From assembly GCA_030647555.1 (NCBI GenBank), contig JAUSJG010000007.1, positions 106,181 through 170,180 of the forward strand: a stretch of 64,000 nt of DNA, given 5' to 3'. The DNA is from a bacterium. GTDB taxonomy: Bacteria > Patescibacteriota > Andersenbacteria > UBA10190 > CAIZMI01. Position 1 is the stretch's first letter. Each line of letters begins with the position of its first letter. Below are positions 4,019-51,681 of the stretch, piece after piece. Under the pieces are notes generated by a model that worked only from the letters and a program-made list of their open reading frames with translations, made no database searches and was not told where the DNA came from. The position numbers and the translations under genes are program-made.

Positions 4019-5287
4019 ATGGCAGAAATAAACACAGAAACGGAAACAACAATTCAATCGCCTGTCATTCCTACTGAAGCAGGAATCAGCAACGACCAGA
4101 AAACGGATTCCTGCTTCGGCAGGAATGACGATGTTGCCAACGAACTCTCTATCCTCCAAGCCCTCGCAGCCTTCCGACCAAATATCAACGCGTCAAAATT
4201 ACACGCCCTCATTAAATACGCTGGCAGTATTGAACAGGCTTGGGCAGTACCCGACGAAGCGTTGGAACAATACGGCTGGACTGCGGAACAACGACAATTA
4301 TTTAATGCTCACCGAAAAAATTATCAACCGGAAAAAGCACTGGAGCGCCTTTACCATTTAGGCATAGAGTTTATTCCCGACACTTCCCCTAAATTTCCAA
4401 AATCACTTCTTGATATATTCGATCCACCGCTTGGTCTTTATGTTCGCGGTAAACTTCACCAAAACAGTTTGAACATTGCTTTTGTGGGCAGTCGCAAAGC
4501 CACACCCTACGGAAAAACCGTTACAAACATGTTGGTGCGTCCGCTTGCCGCCAAAGGCGTCGTCATTATTTCCGGGTTAGCTTATGGCATCGATGCCGAA
4601 GCCCACCAGGCCACACTACAAAGCAATGGCACCACTTGGGCCGTCATGGGCAACGGTTGCGACGAAATGACTCTTTATCCACGCGCCCACCGCCAGTTAG
4701 CAAAAGACATTATTAATAATGATGGCGCGGTAATCAGTGAATATCCACCCGGCACACCGGGGCAACCCTATTTTTTCCCACAACGTAACCGCATTGTCTC
4801 CGGTCTTTCTCGCGCGATTGTTGTCGTGGAAGCAGGGCTACAAAGCGGTGCCCTAATCACCGCCCGCTTGGGCCTTGAACAAAATCGTGAAGTTTTCGCC
4901 GTTCCCGGCCCCATTACTTCGGAAATGTCCCAAGGAACCAACGAACTGATCCGCGATGGTGCGACACCTGTGAGTAGTGCCGAACAAATTATGGACGCGT
5001 TGGAACTGTTCTCTTTATTTGGCGGAATATCTCCCTCAAAAGCCGCGAGACAAATCTCCCACAAAGACATCGATGCCGTTTCAAATATTGTCGCAAGAAC
5101 CACTTCCAATCAACCGCAAAATGACCAAGAAAAAGTCTTAACTGTCCTTTCTACAAATCCGCTCGCTATTGACGAGATCGTAAAAGCCAGTACACTCCCG
5201 TCTCAAGTGGTAGGTTCTATTTTAACTCTTTTGGAAATTGAAGGTTTAGTCAAAGATATCGGCAATAAAAACTACACCAGAATTTGA
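4019..5287 (+). CDS. dprA: DNA processing protein DprA/Smf
   Basis: Rossmann-like DprA core (VVIISGLAYGIDAEAHQATL, FAVPGPI), SAM-like N-region; exact start uncertain (imperfect inverted repeat 4070-4130 lies inside the 5' end of the ORF). Confidence 0.8.
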   Translation: MAEINTETETTIQSPVIPTEAGISNDQKTDSCFGRNDDVANELSILQALAAFRPNINASKLHALIKYAGSIEQAWAVPDEALEQYGWTAEQRQLFNAHRKNYQPEKALERLYHLGIEFIPDTSPKFPKSLLDIFDPPLGLYVRGKLHQNSLNIAFVGSRKATPYGKTVTNMLVRPLAAKGVVIISGLAYGIDAEAHQATLQSNGTTWAVMGNGCDEMTLYPRAHRQLAKDIINNDGAVISEYPPGTPGQPYFFPQRNRIVSGLSRAIVVVEAGLQSGALITARLGLEQNREVFAVPGPITSEMSQGTNELIRDGATPVSSAEQIMDALELFSLFGGISPSKAARQISHKDIDAVSNIVARTTSNQPQNDQEKVLTVLSTNPLAIDEIVKASTLPSQVVGSILTLLEIEGLVKDIGNKNYTRI

Positions 5288-5322
5288 ATAATGATTGATG
5301 AATGATGATTTATGAATAATGA
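5288..5322. repeat. ATG/TCA-rich palindromic gene-boundary linker (family: GAATGATGATTTATGAATAATG / rev-comp)
   Basis: Copies at 5288-5322, 5690-5722, 10786-10812, 26182-26254, 43377-43452, 51641-51678, each abutting or overlapping a start or stop codon. Confidence 0.6.
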
Positions 5323-5701
5323 AAAAAATACCAAAATTACAGTTTTTACAGACCTTAACGCATGGAAAGAATCCCACAAACTTGTCTTGCTCACATACCA
5401 ATTAACAAAAACATTTCCTAAAGATGAAATGTATGGCTTAATTAGCCAAATGAGACGAGCGGCAATTTCGATAACATCAAATATCGCGGAAGGATTTGGC
5501 AGGCAAACTTATCCTGAAAAAATCCAATTTTACTCGATTGCCAAAGGTTCATTATCGGAATTGCAAAATCAACTAATAGCTTCCAGGGACACAAATTTGT
5601 TAAATGAAGATTCTTTTCAGAACGCGTTTAAACAAAGCATTACCGCCCATAAACTCATCACGGGATTAATAAGAAGGTCGCGCGAAATTCATCAATCATA
5701 A
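5312..5701 (+). CDS. Four-helix-bundle protein (23S rRNA intervening-sequence protein family)
   Basis: Signature ITSNIAEGFGRQ...FYSIAKGSLSELQNQL typical of TIGR02436-type proteins; bounded on both sides by ATGATGATTTATGAAT-type palindromic linkers. Confidence 0.8.
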   Translation: MNNEKNTKITVFTDLNAWKESHKLVLLTYQLTKTFPKDEMYGLISQMRRAAISITSNIAEGFGRQTYPEKIQFYSIAKGSLSELQNQLIASRDTNLLNEDSFQNAFKQSITAHKLITGLIRRSREIHQS

Positions 5702-10711: not shown

Positions 10712-11072
10712 GTGATGCTCTCATTGTATATCTACGAGAAAGAATAGGAAACATGCGGTTATTTTTCATTCAATGAACCCAGATTTTGAATGATGAATGA
10801 TGATTTATGAATACTGAACCGCGATATCGTAGGGGCGGACGTCCCCGTCCGCCCGCGTCAACAATATCCAGTTTCTAGTTTCCAAATTTGTACCGGAGGA
10901 GGGAGTCCTTTTTCACCCAAAATTTCCGCTCGCTTTGCTCGAAGGAAATTTTCGGCGAAAAAGCCGGGGTTACATAAACAACTAAAGCAGTTTAGTTGTT
11001 TATGTAACCCTTCGACTCCCACACAAGTTGATTATATATAAAAGTCCCCAAATGGGGACTTTTATATATAAG

Positions 11073-11155
11073 TACCGGAGGAGGGAGTCGAACCCACATG
11101 ACCGTAAGGTCACACGATTTTGAGTCGTGCGCGTAAACCATTCCGCCACTCCGGC
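11073..11155 (-). tRNA. tRNA-Leu (anticodon CAA), type II with long variable arm
   Basis: Rev-comp folds as acceptor GCCGGAG/CTCCGGT + discriminator A, D-arm with GG, anticodon stem CACGA/TCGTG with loop CTCAAAA, variable arm GACC-TTAC-GGTC, T-loop TTCGACT; CCA not encoded. Confidence 0.75.
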
Positions 11156-12467: not shown

Positions 12468-12509
12468 CCGATCACGGAGCGGAGCAACCTTGCTCCGCTC
12501 CGTGATCGG
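12468..12509. repeat. Solo REP-like palindrome (20-bp arms) CCGATCACGGAGCGGAGCAA-CC-TTGCTCCGCTCCGTGATCGG
   Basis: Perfect inverted repeat read directly; same GGAGCAA/TTGCTCC core as palindromes flanking the RAYT gene. Confidence 0.8.
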
Positions 12510-12550: not shown

Positions 12551-12697
12551 ATGCCCAGTAATACAACTTCCAATTACTGGATTAATTCCTAACTCTTGAA
12601 TGAATAAATATGCACAAATTGAACTTCTTAACCTTATCTTCCGCCAGTTTTGAACGAACCGCGTTCGTTCAAATTGGAAGTTGATATACTGGGTATG
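12551..12697 (+). promoter_or_regulatory. Conserved leader element copy 1 (upstream of ugd)
   Basis: Distal GCCCAGTAATACAACTTCCAATT, internal hairpin TTGAACGAA-CCGCG-TTCGTTCAA, proximal AATTGGAAGTTGATATACTGGGT-ATG. Confidence 0.6.
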
Positions 12698-14047: not shown

Positions 14048-14063
14048 TTACTAACCAGCTTAC

Positions 14064-14829
14064 CACCTACGAGGTGGAGCAACCTTGCTCCACCTCGTAG
14101 GTGGTGCAAGGCAATAAATTTATTCCAAACAAAGAGCCTTAATTTGTGCAAGCTCTTTTTGATAATTCGCTTGATCATTTGTAAATTTTTCGTATTGTTT
14201 TCCCGAAAACGGCATCAGCCCTGAATAATCGCAAACTGGAAATTTCACACTATCGCTTTTTACATACTCTAAAAATGAAGAATATGGCCAATCGGATGCT
14301 TTCTTGACTAATCCCGCGCTAACCGGATTCAAGTGGATATAGCGCGTTAAATGCAAAAAATGATTATCGTTGCTTACATTAACACTCTGAAAACGCCCTA
14401 CCCAAAGAGGCCCCTTTCGTTCAATTTTTGTATTAAAGTAACGAGCATAAGCATTAGAAACATCAGACAGATATTTTTCAATCCCGTGCTCTTTCAATTG
14501 TTTTACGACAAGATGAAAATGTGTCGGCATTAAGCCATAACAAATGACTTGAATGGATTTATCCTTATCCGCTAACACTCGGCTTATTTCTTCTTCAATA
14601 TTTTCTTTGTGAATTTTTACATCACGTAAAAATTGAGAGTATTTCTGTCGAACACCGGCATATGTGTAATACCTGATTAAATTTTTCATATGAAAAAAAT
14701 CGCCCTCCTTTTGAAATATTCTAAACCCCGCTATGCTTTTATTCATCACATGATAAATTTCACCATTTGCTAAAATATCTTTTCGCATAAAGTTATTATA
14801 ATCCCAAAATCATCTTTGCTCCACCTACG
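14064..14829. mobile_element. REPtron-like unit: RAYT gene bracketed by REP-like palindromes sharing the core GGAGCAA-NN-TTGCTCC
   Basis: Left 40-nt palindrome CACCTACGAGGTGGAGCAACCTTGCTCCACCTCGTAGGTG (14064-14103), right hairpin TTGCTCCACCTACGAGGTGGAGCA (14806-14829). Confidence 0.6.
14120..14788 (-). CDS. IS200/RAYT-type Y1 (HUH) transposase, COG1943-like
   Basis: HUH motif PTHFHLVV and C-terminal catalytic tyrosine context RYIHLNPVSAGLV...DWPYSSF typical of REP-associated tyrosine transposases; flanked by palindromes at 14064-14103 and 14806-14829. Confidence 0.75.
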   Translation of the reverse strand: MRKDILANGEIYHVMNKSIAGFRIFQKEGDFFHMKNLIRYYTYAGVRQKYSQFLRDVKIHKENIEEEISRVLADKDKSIQVICYGLMPTHFHLVVKQLKEHGIEKYLSDVSNAYARYFNTKIERKGPLWVGRFQSVNVSNDNHFLHLTRYIHLNPVSAGLVKKASDWPYSSFLEYVKSDSVKFPVCDYSGLMPFSGKQYEKFTNDQANYQKELAQIKALCLE

Positions 14830-14949
14830 AGGTGGAGCAGGTTGACAAAACCACCCCAAAACGCAACACTGCCCTGTTGCGTCAATGTTGACGTGACGGC
14901 TGTGCGCATACCACAGTCATGCACATTTCTACTTCAGGGAGACATCGCC

Positions 14950-24106: not shown

Positions 24107-24262
24107 AAAGTACCCTATGAAAGTGACAGATCCAACGTAAGGTCGGACTGCCGAGCGGTCCGACCTTGATTGGTTGCGTCACGTTGTCGGCCAATGAGGG
24201 GCGGACCCCTCGAGGAGTCCGCCCCTCGTCTACATCCAATGCGAAATCTTTTTTGTAAATTT

Positions 24263-24529
24263 TTAGAAGCACTCGCCGAGGTGCAACATTTCGCGCCCCT
24301 TACACGTGCCCTCGCAAACACTCGTATAGGTATGACCATCCGTCGAACAAACTAGCGCATGGCCAGCACCGCAATCACATGAACCCGAATTTACAACCTG
24401 CGTTCTTAGATATGATGCCGGTGACATTGCCACCATCAGAAGAACCACAAATACCAAAGCCAAGCAAACTCCCAAAAGAATTTTCCCGTTATCCAAAAAT
24501 CGTTTTTTCTTTTTTATTTTTTTAGGCAT
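24263..24529 (-). CDS. Membrane-anchored Kazal-type serine-protease-inhibitor domain protein
   Basis: N-terminal basic stretch + TM helix, then six-Cys pattern C-x-C-x7-C-x6-Y-x3-C-x3-C-x10-C with VCSTDGHTYTSVCE matching Kazal core VCG[ST]DGxTY. Confidence 0.6.
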   Translation of the reverse strand: MPKKIKKKKRFLDNGKILLGVCLALVFVVLLMVAMSPASYLRTQVVNSGSCDCGAGHALVCSTDGHTYTSVCEGTCKGREMLHLGECF

Positions 24530-24530
24530 C

Positions 24531-24743
24531 CTATTGTTTTCGCCATGTTGAAATTATTACTTTCTTCGCCCCATCACGCTTGTAAACTACAACATATTTG
24601 ATACCACGCCGTTCAATTTCAGACTTATAAATACCATGCCCTTGATATCGAGAAGTACCACGCGAAGCCGAAGTGGTCGCACTATTTCCCACTCCACGCT
24701 GTTTCATGCGCTTCTTGGCGTGTTTGGTGAAGAAAAGACCCAT
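24531..24743 (-). CDS. Small basic protein, DUF4258-like
   Basis: FTKHAKKRMKQRGV motif reminiscent of DUF4258; short, low confidence. Confidence 0.35.
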   Translation of the reverse strand: MGLFFTKHAKKRMKQRGVGNSATTSASRGTSRYQGHGIYKSEIERRGIKYVVVYKRDGAKKVIISTWRKQ

Positions 24744-24814
24744 AGTTTGATACTACCATGAATTTCTAAAACTTTCCGTCGTCTTCTTTTTTTATCACTT
24801 GAGTAATTATTATC

Positions 24815-25141
24815 TTGTGCTATCCTTTTTTCATGTTTGGAATCAATAAATCAACAGAACAAATCAAGTGGAGTGCGGAAGCGGAAGGGGCACTGGAACA
24901 AGCCATCACCCAATTTCCGGGGCCAAAGATGATGATTGGTATGGTAAAAGGCAAACTACGATCGGCCGCAGAAAAGAAAGCTGTCGAACTCGGTCATTCA
25001 GAGGTTCATCCGGAGGATCTTATGCAGGGACTTATGGAAATGTTGCCACAATCAGCACGCAACATGATTGAAAAACGGATGCAAGAAGGCCCGGATGGAA
25101 TTGCAAAACTCCAAGACGATCTTAAGGATTTTAAGGGATAA
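24815..25141 (+). CDS. PCP_red-like (protochlorophyllide-reductase C-terminal-like) domain protein
   Basis: W-S-A-E-A-E...AEKKAVELGHSEVHPED resembles PF08369 pattern; start may be internal ATG at 24833. Confidence 0.4.
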   Translation: MCYPFFMFGINKSTEQIKWSAEAEGALEQAITQFPGPKMMIGMVKGKLRSAAEKKAVELGHSEVHPEDLMQGLMEMLPQSARNMIEKRMQEGPDGIAKLQDDLKDFKG

Positions 25142-25179
25142 AACAAAATACCCAAAATAATCCCTCCCCGCCTCCCTTT

Positions 25180-25350
25180 GCATTGCTGTCGCGTTAAGAA
25201 AAAAGTAAAAAAATAATACGCTATAGTAAGCCATTTGTTTTGCAAAATATGTTCAAATTCAATTCAAGTCGAAAAATAAATTTCTCTAAAAATTTAGCTT
25301 GCAAAAGGGATTATTTCGGCTTTGTAAAATTATTAACGCGACAGCAATGC
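25180..25350. mobile_element. MITE-like element: 18-bp perfect terminal inverted repeats GCATTGCTGTCGCGTTAA, AT-rich non-coding interior, flanked by 9-bp direct repeat CCTCCCTTT
   Basis: TIRs at 25180-25197 and 25333-25350; direct repeats at 25171-25179 and 25350-25358 read directly. Confidence 0.6.
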
Positions 25351-25417
25351 CTCCCTTTGAGTAAGGGGAGGAGTTGCACCGTTCCCTCCCTTTTTCAAGG
25401 GAGGGCGAGGGTGGGTT

Positions 25418-26179
25418 TTATTCAATTCCAAACAATTTTCGGGTATTTGCCTCCGTGACTTGAGCAACCTCTTCCACCGATATCCCCTTAATCTCCGCGA
25501 TTTTCTTGGCAATTTCCACGACGTACGCCGGTTCGTTGCGTTGACCACGTACAACCTGTGGCGCCAAAAATGGCGCGTCGGTTTCGATCAATAAACGCTC
25601 AAGCGGCAAATCCTTTACGACAGCGCGTATTTCATCGGCTTTTGGAAATGTCACCATTCCGGCGATGCCTAAATAATACCCTTGATCCAAATAAAATTTT
25701 GCCTCTCCAGGCGTGCCTGTAAAACTATGAATGACCGCATTGAGTTTAAAATTATTTTCACGAATTATTTGTTGAAACTCTTTATGCACGTAACGGACGT
25801 GAAAAATTATCGGCTTATTGTGCGCAACAGCCAAAGTAATAAAACGTAACATCGCTGGGATTTGTTCTTCAAGTGACGGCAGGCGTTCGTTTTTTTCCAA
25901 ACCAATTTCGCCAACTGCTACAACCTTGGGATGCTTCAATAATTCCGCAAAACGCAACCAAAACGCTTCCGTAATATTTTTTATTCCCTCCGGATGTACG
26001 CCAATCGACGCATAAACATTTTCGAATTGTTCGGCGATTTTTACCGGCTTTTCAAAACCAAAACAATCGGCACCGGGGTTAATAATTGTGTTTACGCCCG
26101 CTTGTTTCGCACGACCAATAACCTCCGACCGATCGGCATTAAACTGTTCAACGTCTAAATGACAATGAGAGTCAATCAT
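25418..26179 (-). CDS. tatD: TatD-family metal-dependent DNase/hydrolase
   Basis: MIDSHCHLD start and conserved His/Glu/Asp pattern. Confidence 0.88.
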   Translation of the reverse strand: MIDSHCHLDVEQFNADRSEVIGRAKQAGVNTIINPGADCFGFEKPVKIAEQFENVYASIGVHPEGIKNITEAFWLRFAELLKHPKVVAVGEIGLEKNERLPSLEEQIPAMLRFITLAVAHNKPIIFHVRYVHKEFQQIIRENNFKLNAVIHSFTGTPGEAKFYLDQGYYLGIAGMVTFPKADEIRAVVKDLPLERLLIETDAPFLAPQVVRGQRNEPAYVVEIAKKIAEIKGISVEEVAQVTEANTRKLFGIE

Positions 26180-26254
26180 CGCTTGAATAATGATTTACGA
26201 TTTATGATTAAAGAATACGTCGCCGAATTTCGTCGATTCATAAATCATCAATCG

Positions 26255-27685
26255 TCATTCATTCTTCGGAAACAATACCGGCGGGTTTGTGATTTTTCCG
26301 TCACTGTCTATAGAGTCCGAAATTGTCTTCGCTGTTTTTGGCATTACCTCTTTTATCGCCCTCGCAATTAAATCAATTGCGTTTAATACCTGTTGGATTG
26401 TTTGAGCACGTTGTACTTCATCCGCATTTTTCCACGGTGCTTTTGCATCAAGATACACATTCGCCTTACGCGCCCAATTCAAAATACGCTCAAAGATTTT
26501 TTCTAATGATTCATCATTATACATATCTTTTATATCTTGCGCGTCATAAATCTCGCTTGTTTCACTGTCAACGTGTTTGACACTAAATTTTTCCGCCAAA
26601 TTAAAAGTTCTTCTTACAAGATTACCAAGCACATTAGCCAGTTCATTATATTTTTCGTCAAACCGATCAACAGCAATGTCGCCTGAATTTCCAAACGGAA
26701 GCGCTGTAATAATTAAGTAGCGCGCAACGTCTGAACCGTATTTATCAACAATATCAATCGGGTCGATAACATTTCCCAAGCTCTTACTCATCTTTTGACC
26801 ATTGATTGTAAAAAATCCGTGAATGGAAAGCGATTTGGGTAATTCTAACCCCAGCGCCAATAAAATCGCTGGCCAATAAACGGCATGAAATTTTAGAATC
26901 TCTTGCGCCATTACCTGTACATCCGCCGGCCAGAATTTTTTCAGTTGCTCATCATTTTCCGAACCATAGCCCAAGGCGGTAACATAATTTAACAACGCAT
27001 CCAGCCAGACATAAGCCACTTGAGTGGAATCAAACGGAAGTTCAATTCCCCACTTGAGGCGTTCTTTTGATCTGGAGATAGAGAAATCTTCCAGTCCTTG
27101 CTGAAATAGCCCCAAAACTTCATTTTTCCGCTCTGTGGGTAAAATTAATATCCGATCGGCCTCAATCGCACTCTTAATTTCCGGCAAAAATTTAGCGAGG
27201 TTGAAGAACCAATTTTTTTCTTCCACTACCACCGGTTTCTTTTGGTGTAGCGGTTCCAAACCGTTCTCGTCCAAATCTTTTTCGGTTACAAAGGCTTCAC
27301 ACCCAGTGCAATAAAGACCTGTATAGGTTTTTTCGTAAATAACGCCTGTTTCTTTGAGTTTGTTTAACGCGTAAATAACGCCTTGTTCATGCCGCTTGTC
27401 AGTAGTACGAATAAAATCTGAATAACCAATATCAAGTTTTTGCCAACAATCTTTAAAGCTCTGGGCAATTTCATCAACAAATTGTTGAGGTTCTTTTCCA
27501 GCAACAGTAGCAGTGTCGGCCACTTTCGCGCCATGTTCATCGGTACCGGTGAGAAAAAAAATATCCTCGCCGCGCCCTTTATGCAAACGCGCCAAAACAT
27601 CCGCCGCAATGGTCGTATAAGCATGACCAATGTGAGGCTTGCCATTGGCGTAGTAGATGGGCGTAGTTATTGAATAGCGATCCAT
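26255..27685 (-). CDS. metG: Methionyl-tRNA synthetase (short form)
   Basis: HIGH region PHIGHAYTT, KMSKS (QKMSKSLGN), CxxC zinc knuckle CTGC. Confidence 0.92.
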   Translation of the reverse strand: MDRYSITTPIYYANGKPHIGHAYTTIAADVLARLHKGRGEDIFFLTGTDEHGAKVADTATVAGKEPQQFVDEIAQSFKDCWQKLDIGYSDFIRTTDKRHEQGVIYALNKLKETGVIYEKTYTGLYCTGCEAFVTEKDLDENGLEPLHQKKPVVVEEKNWFFNLAKFLPEIKSAIEADRILILPTERKNEVLGLFQQGLEDFSISRSKERLKWGIELPFDSTQVAYVWLDALLNYVTALGYGSENDEQLKKFWPADVQVMAQEILKFHAVYWPAILLALGLELPKSLSIHGFFTINGQKMSKSLGNVIDPIDIVDKYGSDVARYLIITALPFGNSGDIAVDRFDEKYNELANVLGNLVRRTFNLAEKFSVKHVDSETSEIYDAQDIKDMYNDESLEKIFERILNWARKANVYLDAKAPWKNADEVQRAQTIQQVLNAIDLIARAIKEVMPKTAKTISDSIDSDGKITNPPVLFPKNE

Positions 27686-27894
27686 GAGAGGAGTGTAGGG
27701 ATAATTTAATGTTTAGACAAGAAAGAAATCCATTAAATCCCAAACCCCAATGACCAATGTCCAACAAAATCCCAATTTTCAAAATACCAAAAACGTTTTG
27801 GCCATTTGAGATTTAGAATATTGTTGGGATTTGGGGTTTGGTCATTGGGATTTAAAAACATGAGTATTTCTAAATATTCAAGTATAATTTCCCC

Positions 27895-32156: not shown

Positions 32157-32297
32157 CCCAGTATATCAACTTTCAATTTGAACGAATTCGATTCGTTCAA
32201 AAATTACTCTTATCAAAGCTAAATTTTTTTCATTTTTCATGATGTTTATCGGCATAAAAGTGAGATCTAAAAATTGAAAGTTGTATTACTGGGCATG
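32154..32297 (-). promoter_or_regulatory. Conserved leader element copy 2 (upstream of glyQS)
   Basis: Same architecture; hairpin TTGAACGAATCGAATTCGTTCAA; C-G to T-A compensatory change between distal/proximal arms. Confidence 0.6.
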
Positions 32298-34982: not shown

Positions 34983-35079
34983 GGTATAACACTTTACCTC
35001 AATCGAATTCCACTTGTCGAATCAACACATTTGGGGTTGAAAAATAATCCATCATAAATCGAAACCATTGCCTACGAAG

Positions 35080-35245
35080 GGCTTGGTAATTAATAAACGC
35101 TCCATATTATGTCCAATCCATCTCCAAATACAACTGCTTCTCAATCAAAAACCTTTCAACGTACGTACAGTACGTTTCAAGTTTTTTTCAATCAAAGACA
35201 GCTGTCTTTGAAGCGCATTGAACATAATATTGGAGCGTTTATTAA
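35080..35245. repeat. MITE-like element with 33-bp near-perfect terminal inverted repeats GGCTTGGTAATTAATAAACGCTCCA(A)TATTATGT
   Basis: Arms at 35080-35112 and 35212-35245 differ by a single base; interior contains two short palindromes; no target-site duplication seen. Confidence 0.6.
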
Positions 35246-35255
35246 TTACCAAGCC

Positions 35256-35477
35256 CTATCGTGTAATAATCTTGTCACGAATATCCCAGAGTAAGAGAGT
35301 AACCGAAAAAATCATCGTGATTACGAAGAACTCTGTCAATCCACCAAAACCAACACCGAGCACCTCTGTCTGGTTGGTAAGACCTAATACAATACGAATC
35401 ATATAGCCCAAAACACCCAAACCCAACAGTAATTTAATTAATTGGTTTCTACGCAGATCTGTTGAAAATACTTTCAT
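35256..35477 (-). CDS. Possible small membrane protein (73 aa)
   Basis: Two hydrophobic helices; short, no SD. Confidence 0.3.
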   Translation of the reverse strand: MKVFSTDLRRNQLIKLLLGLGVLGYMIRIVLGLTNQTEVLGVGFGGLTEFFVITMIFSVTLLLWDIRDKIITR

Positions 35478-41244: not shown

Positions 41245-41284
41245 CGATCACGGAACGGAGCAAGGTTGCTCCGTTCCGTGATCG
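41245..41284. repeat. Solo REP-like palindrome CGATCACGGAACGGAGCAA-GG-TTGCTCCGTTCCGTGATCG
   Basis: Near-identical to 12468-12509 copy with compensatory changes in both arms (GAGCGG to GAACGG, CCGCTC to CCGTTC). Confidence 0.8.
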
Positions 41285-42829: not shown

Positions 42830-43449
42830 GTATGCGAAAAAGAGCGAGCAAGAACAATAAGGTGGGACTGGATGTGGTCTCATTTGGAGTGAAACCATAC
42901 TGGAGCAGACTTGTTTCCCTGCGGAAGATGGGCTGTCTACTCTGTAACACTTGCGGGCTACTTTCAAACCCGAAAGCACATCCGGCGTTCTTGCCCGCTC
43001 TCGAAATATGCTAAAAGAACTACGCTCAACCATTGTAAACCCTGCTTTTGCAATGTCAAACAAACAAGAAAACACCCATGAGCGATGTCATGGGTGGGTA
43101 TAAGGTGCGGGCGCGGAGAGAAGAACTAGCAACTGGAGAAAGAGAAATGGTACACAGCTTTGTGTCCGACCGACCAGAATGACATCAAGCTGTCTGGCGT
43201 GCCAACACTGAGCGAACTCTGCATAGCTGGCAAACCCACACTGAAACTTCCAATCGACGCAAACCCAGTGTTGGCACCCATTTCTTGTCCCACTGTGGAC
43301 AACCCCTCCGCGACCCGCATACTTGCCAAAGAACCTATTTACAAAATACTCCCACCACAATGATTGTCAAGCGAACGAATATGATTAATGATTTACGAAT
43401 GATGATTTATGAAAAACGATTCGGTTTAAGACTCATAAATCCTAAATCA

Positions 43450-46329
43450 TCATTCCTGTCGAATTCCTGTTTCCATACCAAATAAAATTTCTTTTGCGCC
43501 CACACGATTTTTAAACTCGTCCGCGAATGTAGTGAAAACTTTTTTGTTAACCTCCGTATCTTCCAGCGTCAAAACAATCCGATCGCCCACATTCAAACCT
43601 GCTTCTTGACGCATACGTTGAACCTGACGCACCAAATTGCGCAAATCGCCTTCAAGTTTAAGCTCTTCCGAGAGTTTCGTAGCAAGACCGATAAAATATT
43701 CTTGTTCGTTAAAGCGCAAAGATTTTTTTACATCGTCCGGAGGAGTGGCAAGTTTAACTTCTTTTACATTCAACTCATCTTGTAAAACCTCCAGCAAACC
43801 AGCCGATAGGCCAACATTTTCCGAAACCCACATCACAGAAAGTGGCTGTTTGATGGCGAGATTATTTTCCTTGCGAATCGCGTGCGCAAATGAAGCAACG
43901 GCACGCAGTTTTTCCATATCACTCAACAAATCCGCATTGTTCTTTATAAATTCTTTATCGACAACCGGATAATCTTCCAAATGCACCGATTCTTTAAATT
44001 CTCCCTTGCCTCCTCTTTTCAATTCCTGATAAATGTTTTCGGAAATAAATGGCACAATGGGCGCAATCGCTTTTGCGGTTTTTAACAAGACAACATACAA
44101 AGTAGCCAACGCCTGCTTATCGCCACTGAAAATCCGTTCACGACTGCGACGAATATACCAAGTGGATAAATCATTAATAAATTCTTCGACCGTTCTTACC
44201 GCCGGAGGAATGTTGTATGTTTCAATCCCGGTAGCAACCGCTTGAACTGTCTGCTCCAAACGCGCATTTATCCAACGGTCCAAAATGTTGTCTGATTTTG
44301 CATCCGACAATTCGAAATCGTGTTCCACGGCATAAGTCAAGAAATAGACCACCGAATTCCAAAGAATATTTAGAACGCCACGTACTTTATTAGTCATCTC
44401 GGTCTCACTCAAATTTGCGCTTTCACCCAACATTAACGGTGAGGCCATGAAATAAAGTCTCAACGCATCACCACCCAAAGTATTTAGAACACCCTTGGTG
44501 TCGGGATAATTATTATAACTTTTACTCATCTTACGCCCATCCGTCCCGGCCAACACACCGGTCACCACGACATTCTTAAATGGCGCGCGATCAAACAACG
44601 CCGTACTGATCCGAAAAAGGATTTGGAACCAGGCGCGAATCTGTCCCGTATATTCAATAATGAAATCAGCGGGGAAACCTTTTTCAAAAACTTCCTTGTT
44701 TTCAAACGGATAATGATACTCGGCAAAAGGAACGGACCCGGAATCCAGCCAAACATCCAAAATATCGACGATACGGTGAAATTCTTTACCGTCTTTTTTC
44801 AGAATAATTTTATCCATAATATCGCGATGGAAAGAAAGTGGCCGATCGCCAAAGAAATAGGATTTTTTATCCCCTTCAACTTTTTCCGTCACCTGCTCCG
44901 TATACTGGCGTAACTCCGCGATACTGCCGATGACAATTTCCTCGCCATCTTCACTACGCCAAATCGGCATCACTGTGCCCCAATAGCGTTTGCGACTGAT
45001 ACACCAATCCGGCGCCCCTTGTACAACTTCACGGAAACGTCCGTCTTTAAAGACTTCGGGAACCCACTGCACATCTTGGTTAAGCTCCAAAATTCTCTTG
45101 TTGATTTCTTTTAGATTCACAAAATAGGCTTCTTGCGCCACATAAATAAGCGGACTTTTACTGCGATAGAAAGGCAAACGATGCTTATAAAGTTCCTTGC
45201 GATAAAGTTGCCCCGTTTTTTCCATTTCTTCCGCGATTAACACAGAAGCCTTGCGAATATACACCCCACGCCAAGGATCGATCAACATCTTCCCTTCTTC
45301 ATCAATATCTGAAAGATCAGATAACCCAAATTGCAATCCCAAGTTATAATCCATTTCGCCAAACGCGGGGGCGACATGCAGAACACCCGTACCTTCCGTA
45401 TTTGTTACGCCATCAGAAGAATAAACTTTATAATCGGCCGATTTGCATTTGTCGACAAAATTATTAAACAGCGGTTCATACGCGATTCCTAGTAACGATT
45501 CCCCACTGAACCTTTGCAAAACATTTACCAATTTTTCTTGAAAGGAGTTTTTGACTAAATCTTCCGCAAGAATAAATAAGGTATTTTCTGATTCCGCCAA
45601 GACGTAAGTAAAAGCCGGGTTAACCGCGAGTGCAAAATTTGAGGGCAACGTCCAAGGCGTTGTCGTCCAAGATAAGAAATAGACAGGGAGTCCGTTCGCC
45701 ACATCTTCAAAACGTTCGTCTTTCACTTTAAACTTTACAAACACGCTTAAATCTTCCACTTCCTGGTAATTGTCCGGATCCATCGCTACTTCAAATTCCG
45801 AGACCGGCGTTGAAGTCTCCGTGGAATAAAGCGACGTTCTTTTACCGCGATAAATCAAGCCTTTTTCGTACATTTGCTTGAAAGCCCAAATAACTGATTC
45901 CCCAAATTGTCCGTCCATTGTTTTATAGGCATGATCCAAATCCACCCAACGACCCACTTTGTTGATATACCAACGCCAATCGCTAATTTGCTCTTCCACA
46001 AACTCGCGACACAATGCCACATATTTATCCACACCAAAATCTTCCACTTGCTTACGATTGCGAATCCCGTGTTTTTCATTAACCTTCGCCTCAATCGGCA
46101 AGCCGTGACAATCCCAACCCCAAACACGGCGCACCCTTTTTCCTTTCATTGTCCAATATCTAGGCACTAAATCTTTGGCGATCGAAACCAGCAAGTGCGC
46201 GTAGTGCGGACTGCCACTCACAAACGGCGGACCATCTACAAAAACAAACCGATTATCCTCCGGTCGACTTTCAACCGACTTTTCAAAAATTTTATTTTCT
46301 TGCCAAAATTTCAAAGTCGCATCTTCCAT
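43450..46329 (-). CDS. ileS: Isoleucyl-tRNA synthetase
   Basis: HIGH-like SPHYAHLL, KMSKS (RKMSKSYNN), CP1 editing domain; start set at MEDATLKFW ATG because longer ORF runs into REP-type repeats. Confidence 0.9.
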   Translation of the reverse strand: MEDATLKFWQENKIFEKSVESRPEDNRFVFVDGPPFVSGSPHYAHLLVSIAKDLVPRYWTMKGKRVRRVWGWDCHGLPIEAKVNEKHGIRNRKQVEDFGVDKYVALCREFVEEQISDWRWYINKVGRWVDLDHAYKTMDGQFGESVIWAFKQMYEKGLIYRGKRTSLYSTETSTPVSEFEVAMDPDNYQEVEDLSVFVKFKVKDERFEDVANGLPVYFLSWTTTPWTLPSNFALAVNPAFTYVLAESENTLFILAEDLVKNSFQEKLVNVLQRFSGESLLGIAYEPLFNNFVDKCKSADYKVYSSDGVTNTEGTGVLHVAPAFGEMDYNLGLQFGLSDLSDIDEEGKMLIDPWRGVYIRKASVLIAEEMEKTGQLYRKELYKHRLPFYRSKSPLIYVAQEAYFVNLKEINKRILELNQDVQWVPEVFKDGRFREVVQGAPDWCISRKRYWGTVMPIWRSEDGEEIVIGSIAELRQYTEQVTEKVEGDKKSYFFGDRPLSFHRDIMDKIILKKDGKEFHRIVDILDVWLDSGSVPFAEYHYPFENKEVFEKGFPADFIIEYTGQIRAWFQILFRISTALFDRAPFKNVVVTGVLAGTDGRKMSKSYNNYPDTKGVLNTLGGDALRLYFMASPLMLGESANLSETEMTNKVRGVLNILWNSVVYFLTYAVEHDFELSDAKSDNILDRWINARLEQTVQAVATGIETYNIPPAVRTVEEFINDLSTWYIRRSRERIFSGDKQALATLYVVLLKTAKAIAPIVPFISENIYQELKRGGKGEFKESVHLEDYPVVDKEFIKNNADLLSDMEKLRAVASFAHAIRKENNLAIKQPLSVMWVSENVGLSAGLLEVLQDELNVKEVKLATPPDDVKKSLRFNEQEYFIGLATKLSEELKLEGDLRNLVRQVQRMRQEAGLNVGDRIVLTLEDTEVNKKVFTTFADEFKNRVGAKEILFGMETGIRQE

Positions 46330-50771: not shown

Positions 50772-50916
50772 ACCCAGTATATCAACTTCCAATTTGAGCG
50801 ATTTCGAATCGCTCAAAAGAAGAACCGGTTAATGTTAAAACATTCCTCGGGCCCATACACAAAACCAATAGTTCTCGCTGAAATTTGAAATTGGAAGTTG
50901 TATTACTACTGGGCAT
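50769..50916 (-). promoter_or_regulatory. Conserved leader element copy 3 (upstream of argS)
   Basis: Hairpin TTGAGCGATTCGAAATCGCTCAA (covarying), proximal arm ends in start ATG. Confidence 0.6.
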
Positions 50917-51591: not shown

Positions 51592-51681
51592 CAAATACAT
51601 CCAACCCACCGACCCTGTCAAAGAGCCGGTTTTTATTACCTTTCCAAAATCATCAATCATCATTCATAATTCATTACAGTT

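Follow-up and report, generated by a model that had tools for sequence, protein, structure and literature searches.

The stretch of DNA analysed here, 64 kb in length and hereafter called the window, contains a 276-bp spacer between two convergent genes that hosts a short segment with perfect inverted ends. To its left is the gene of a 102-aa protein that gave a weak PCP_red-like match in a Pfam scan (24833-25141, + strand) and has its 3' end toward the segment, and to its right is the gene of a TatD-family hydrolase (25418-26179, - strand; PF01026, E 1.4e-77). The wider neighbourhood consists of housekeeping genes (rarA/mgsA, leuS, metG, an AI-2E transporter and M16 peptidases). The named proteins nearest to the LeuRS of the source genome are from Patescibacteria, at 54-60% identity, and nothing in this comparison points toward Gammaproteobacteria. 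Further to the left, on the - strand at 24263-24743, adjacent ORFs of 70 aa (with a weak DUF4258 match) and 88 aa, which are also paired in contigs L004 and L008, are possibly a toxin-antitoxin pair.

The spacer also carries two hairpins on the + strand. Hairpin 1 (25350-25371) reads CCTCCC-TTTGAGTAAG-GGGAGG and has a homologue, CCCTCCTTTGAATAAAGGAGGG, in contig L005 of a relative described below. Hairpin 2 (25384-25405) reads CCCTCCCTT-TTTC-AAGGGAGGG; it is native spacer sequence that lies outside the segment with inverted ends and is likewise conserved in L005. The two hairpins explain why four of the eight CCTCCC motifs and two of the four GGGAGG motifs of the window fall within 240 bp here. 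They also explain a third copy of the 9-mer CCTCCCTTT, which occurs three times in the window against 0.5 expected: at 25385, this copy serves as the left arm of hairpin 2. The leftmost copy of the 9-mer has no G-rich partner, whereas the other two copies have one.

An earlier note on this DNA had described perfect 18-nt inverted repeats enclosing a 135-nt AT-rich non-coding segment, with a 9-bp target-site duplication at both ends, and had read them as a MITE-type insertion footprint. The inverted repeats are exactly as claimed: the left arm, GCATTGCTGTCGCGTTAA, occupies 25180-25197, and 135 nt separate it from its exact reverse complement, which occupies 25333-25350. They are the only such pair in the window, the 18-mer having no third match at up to three mismatches (0.07 expected), and by our own estimate the probability that 64 kb should contain, by chance, two perfectly inverted 18-nt arms no more than 500 bp apart is ~5e-4. 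If one mismatch is allowed, a repeat finder lengthens the arms to 21 nt (25180-25200 and 25330-25350).

The direct repeat is also real, but its length needed correction. Both 9-mer copies are present (25171-25179 and 25350-25358), but the right one shares base 25350 with the right 18-nt arm, and the full direct repeat is 11 nt long (GCCTCCCTTTG, 25170-25180 and 25349-25359) and overlaps the 18-nt arms by 1-2 nt. The best parse, and the sole one that makes the ends symmetrical, takes 25181-25349 as a 169-bp element that has 17-nt ends CATTGCTGTCGCGTTAA and is flanked by a 10-bp duplication CCTCCCTTTG. The left terminal inverted repeat then occupies 25181-25197 (+ strand), beginning one base inside the start of the 18-mer, and the right one, its exact reverse complement, occupies 25333-25349 (- strand). 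The copies of the duplication, located from the sequence and a direct-repeat search, lie at 25171-25180 and 25350-25359, and the right copy forms the left arm of hairpin 1.

The account of the interior in the earlier note also holds. The 135 nt between the ends (25198-25332) have a G+C content of 24%, compared with 29% for the element as a whole and 45% for the window. Stop codons interrupt all six reading frames of the element, and the ORFs that overlap it have no Pfam match. At 169 bp it falls within the size range by which bacterial MITEs are defined, about 50-600 bp (quoted in PMC6382973).

The element is present in an independent assembly. The Logan assembly of run SRR13727527 (L001) matches the window without a difference over 24145-27762, including the element, and the interior has the same single orientation in both. 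This contig and the 172-kb source contig both assemble straight across the element, which suggests that there are few identical copies of it; the window itself contains one.

We compared the locus with syntenic loci in relatives, which were reached through homologues of TatD. Three contigs (L005, L006 and L007) belong to one relative, in which TatD is 85% identical and the convergent gene order is the same. The two-hairpin CCCTCC architecture of the spacer is found in both L005 and L007, which we read directly; their spacer runs ...AAATCCACCCTCG-CCCTCCTTTG-AATAAAGGAGGG...CCTCCCTTTTTTCAAAGGGAGG.... Aligned with the window, the two contigs match it on both sides and are gapped for ~180 columns exactly at the element. 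They have a single copy of the motif at this site, GCCCTCCTTTG, against two in the window, and the copy that they retain is the left arm of the CCCTCC...GGGAGG hairpin. Subtraction of the element and one repeat copy from the window spacer leaves 97 nt, which share 64 identities with the 89 nt of L005 (alignment score 43, against -21 +/- 8 for shuffles).

Because the relative keeps a single copy, the left motif copy in the window arose by duplication at the time of insertion and is not a mere local repeat, and the insertion point was the loop of hairpin 1, with the left arm and part of the loop duplicated. The earlier note had proposed a search for an empty site, which this relative provides, and had raised the concern that the 9-mer might be part of a local CCCTCC-rich repeat. 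That concern is correct insofar as a local hairpin motif includes the 9-mer, but comparison with the related locus shows the left copy to be an addition. The closest relative by TatD (L004, 88% identical) has an unrelated intergenic region, so the empty-site argument rests on one lineage, represented by several samples. The hairpins in this spacer are unrelated in L004, L008, L044 and L046, which makes these loci unusable as empty sites. A look-up of exact matches to TatD and the 102-aa protein returned the same organism only and no near-identical strain with an empty site.

The ends of the element recur elsewhere. An exact-match scan of metagenome contigs (JGI) with the 17-mer returned 32 loci, most of them coding sequence or single chance matches. 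Four of the loci carry the 17-mer as an element end. L009 holds an element of 222 bp whose 9-bp duplication (AATTTATTT) is perfect, L011 holds one of 273 bp and, 850 bp from it, the right end of another copy, and L018 holds one of 215 bp between imperfect direct repeats of 17-19 nt. L014 shows the left end only, 53 nt before the stored sequence ends. The search for further copies suggested in the earlier note thus yields short elements bounded by inverted repeats, which come from other metagenomes and lie at unrelated loci, and this recurrence, together with the empty site, supports the note's reading of the locus as a MITE-type insertion footprint. At L009, at both copies in L011 and at L018, ends of the left type read CATTGCTGTCGCGTTAAC and those of the right type CACTGCTGTCCCGTTAAC, and the difference always falls at the same two positions, whereas the window element has the left-type end on both sides. 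Such a fixed difference between left and right ends fits recognition of the sequence by a protein better than base pairing alone.

L011 is assigned to uncultured Gammaproteobacteria, its NudF being 90% identical to a protein so named, and we sought further copies by fetching its relatives via NudF. L051 contains a 221-bp copy between mnhE and the gene for 6-phosphogluconate dehydrogenase, a position that is empty in the strains L048 and L049, where NudF is identical. L050 contains the 122-bp core of the L051 copy with a different left flank. The elements with these ends in other metagenomes therefore span 122-273 bp. No copy was found in 115 kb from more distant gammaproteobacterial relatives. 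As a side observation, the left flank of the L050 copy (1277-1398) is on the hopJ side and that of the L051 copy (2175-2395) on the mnh operon side; comparison with L048 (4880-4960), again with identical NudF, suggests a rearrangement that may have had its breakpoint at the element. L051 also has a nested hairpin insertion of ~99 bp that is missing from L050.

The interiors of these elements are less uniform than their ends. Only those of the L050/L051/L011b subfamily are similar; the others, including that of the window element, show no significant similarity to one another. A resemblance between the interior of the window element and the others (GCCATTTG...) was suggestive by eye, did not rise above shuffles and was rejected. 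The duplications are irregular as well, with none at L011a and at most AATTT at L051, and the window and L009 alone have clean ones. When the target is reconstructed, both of these insertions fall in a short hairpin, within its loop, and from the two observations we hypothesize that the elements may prefer hairpin loops.

Broader searches for the ends gave no further elements. The exact 18-mer, scanned against one genome per GTDB species, had two single matches in unrelated genomes, neither with a partner arm; they are consistent with chance, since we estimate that ~17 would be expected. Scans of viral contigs for the ends returned nothing, or a phage coding region only, and BLAST of the ends and three of the elements against 72,556 plasmids returned short chance matches only. 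A literature search for the end sequences returned one unrelated primer only. No transposase bounded by these ends was found in GTDB representatives, JGI metagenome contigs (by exact match), viral contigs or plasmids, and none of the 57 window ORFs compared with Pfam, ten of which were also compared with NCBIfam, belongs to a transposase or site-specific recombinase family. An attC site was considered as a candidate and rejected by eye: GTTAAC departs from the GTTRRRY core, and the surroundings are not those of an integron.

The segment has inverted ends, a flanking duplication and no coding capacity; it is absent from a relative, and its ends recur on other elements. We conclude that 25181-25349 is very probably a non-autonomous, MITE-type DNA transposon with terminal inverted repeats. 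The enzyme and its staggered-cut chemistry are inferred by analogy with established DDE-type insertion sequences, and the effects on transcripts given below are likewise predictions.

On this model, a transposase encoded elsewhere would have bound the two 17-nt ends and moved the element by a cut-and-paste or a replicative route. It would have made a staggered cut of about 10 bp (9-10 bp) in the loop or left arm of hairpin 1, the first terminator-like hairpin after the 102-aa gene. The element would then have been joined in, and repair of the gaps would have duplicated CCTCCCTTTG. Because the duplication rebuilds the left arm beside the right arm, hairpin 1 survives to the right of the element. 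With this hairpin regenerated, and with convergent 3' ends on both sides, the insertion was probably neutral and little effect on the neighbouring genes is expected. A read-through transcript would be 179 nt longer and could gain an RNA stem of 17-18 bp.

The same footprint could also be left by a full-length insertion sequence that lost its transposase gene in place by internal deletion and never moved as a miniature. Such a relic predicts inverted ends and a duplication equally well, and both the single copy in the 64-kb window and an interior unrelated to those of other short elements with the same ends would suit it. However, none of the six frames of the interior preserves a trace of coding sequence, there is no Pfam match, and all the elements found with these ends are short (122-273 bp). 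Furthermore, both ends of the window element are of the left type, whereas a simple internal deletion would keep two different ends if the parent had them. We therefore consider a decayed insertion sequence unlikely.

An invertible promoter would have the same anatomy, with inverted repeats of 18-21 nt flanking a short AT-rich segment; in such a switch a site-specific recombinase would flip the 135 nt and so turn transcription on or off. This explanation is very improbable here. No tyrosine or serine recombinase family is represented among the window ORFs scanned, and a consensus scan finds no sigma-70-like promoter within the segment. A promoter at this position would in any case face convergent 3' ends on both sides and give antisense RNA only. 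Neither a target duplication nor the absence of the whole unit from relatives is expected of an inverton.

An equally slight chance attaches to the idea that the segment is a native, non-mobile structured RNA or terminator module whose closing stem is formed by the arms. The spacer does fold far better than shuffled sequences (z -6.9 and -5.3 on the two strands), and the arms pair as an 18-bp stem. However, it is the perfect arms and the C-rich/G-rich hairpins that make the folding energy low, and the interior is barely structured in the centroid. Rfam 15 contains no family that matches 25100-25450 at E<=1, and in the whole window nothing reaches the gathering score bar one tRNA. The segment is missing from a relative that retains the surrounding hairpins, the direct repeat would play no part in an RNA, and the differences between end types in the other copies would break or weaken the pairing.

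Finally, it is scarcely credible that the pattern is a coincidence in a CCCTCC-rich region, with the 9-mer a local repeat and the inverted repeat unrelated to it: half of the CCTCCC motifs of the window (4 of 8) and half of its GGGAGG motifs (2 of 4) do lie within 240 bp, with the third CCTCCCTTT at 25385, but a perfect 18-nt inverted pair is unexpected, the relative has the same hairpins with a single motif copy at this point, and the left copy stands alone without a G-rich partner.

Among known systems, the MITE-type element that we favour is close in form to MITEAba12 of Acinetobacter, which is 113 bp long with 16-bp ends, 9-bp duplications and 78% A+T, and which is mobilized by ISAba12, a member of the IS5 family (PMC6382973). 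Only 40% of 90 MITEAba12 copies keep their duplications (PMC6382973), so the irregular duplications at the other copies described above are not unusual. Both the Acinetobacter element and the one in the window are short, AT-rich and non-coding, with inverted ends of 16-18 nt and duplications of 9-10 bp. Many MITEAba12 copies lack intact duplications, as do elements that share the window ends, and MITEAba12 is mobilized in trans. The ends of MITEAba12 (GGCTTTGTTGCACAAA) are unrelated to those in the window (CATTGCTGTCGCGTTAA), however, and its parent insertion sequence is known and its interior conserved, whereas the interiors of the elements with the window ends differ between subfamilies and no parent was found for them.

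Members of the IS4 family and their miniature derivatives, such as IS231 and MIC231 of Bacillus, have ends that start with CA(T/C) and make duplications of about 9-12 bp. The tips and the 9-10-bp duplications seen here agree with this pattern, although the end sequence of IS231 differs. Since our searches returned no DDE transposase that carries these ends, assignment to the IS4 family is only a lead. IS1397 and ISKpn1 are full-length IS3-family elements that insert in the loops of REP palindromes with duplications of 3-4 bp. They share with the window site and the reconstructed L009 site an insertion in the loop of a short intergenic hairpin. Correia elements of Neisseria occur in hundreds of copies, duplicate TA and have defined promoter and IHF motifs. 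They resemble the window element in being 100-160 bp long and intergenic, with inverted ends and a possible RNA stem in read-through, and are set apart from it by the TA duplication. General context is given in PMC3184786.

The locus is otherwise an ordinary MITE footprint. It is of interest as a clean, datable insertion in the genome of a poorly known lineage, and it indicates that a transposase recognizing these ends was once active in, or accessible to, that lineage. That unrelated Gammaproteobacteria carry the same ends hints that the parent element has spread horizontally. Annotators should mask the 169 bp as mobile DNA instead of treating it as a regulatory region or an RNA gene. A broader proposal, which we hold tentatively and with low confidence, is that the ends CAYTGCTGTCSCGTTAA define an undescribed transposon family shared by the source bacterium (possibly Patescibacteria-related) and uncultured sediment Gammaproteobacteria; its transposase would lie outside the curated families searched, and it might prefer the loops of short hairpins between genes.

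Several other repeats occur in the window. Perfect 27-nt arms (AGGGCTTGGTAATTAATAAACGCTCCA) enclose 126 nt at 35078-35257, between tgt and the gene of a DUF11 protein; no direct repeat was found at the ends of this segment. In three intergenic regions (12551-12696, 32157-32293 and 50773-50907) a second motif, AATTGGAAGTTGATATACTGGG, forms inverted pairs whose arms are 91-96 nt apart, with four matches at up to three mismatches against 0 expected and additional, more diverged partners. A start codon is only a few bases away from most of the arms that we read, and the motif looks like a leader or promoter motif common to divergent gene pairs, not a mobile element.

Hairpins with arms GAATGATGATTTATGA are a REP-like family. 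They account for 11 matches against 0.1 expected, at 5286-5315/5696-5711, 10788-10810, 26185-26260, 43397-43455 and 51650-51665. One pair brackets a small ORF (5320-5690) that reads like a four-helix-bundle protein of the 23S rRNA intervening-sequence type, and another, between tatD and metG, adjoins the element locus. Perfect palindromes of 19-21 nt containing ...GGAGCAA/TTGCTCC... lie 3' of genes at 12468-12509, 14062-14109, 14816-14839 and 41245-41284 and are probably another family of terminator or REP-like hairpins.

The sole Rfam match in the window is the tRNA at 11073-11155 (- strand, 55 bits), which overlaps a 40-nt imperfect inverted repeat and adjoins a 20-nt perfect palindrome, with hairpins at 10967-11092. 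A hairpin of the type GTCATTCC...GGAATGAC lies near the start of dprA (4064-4129). Hairpins of this widespread kind also occur in the L048 spacer upstream of nudF and nested in the L009 and L011a elements; small palindromes have thus entered these two elements.
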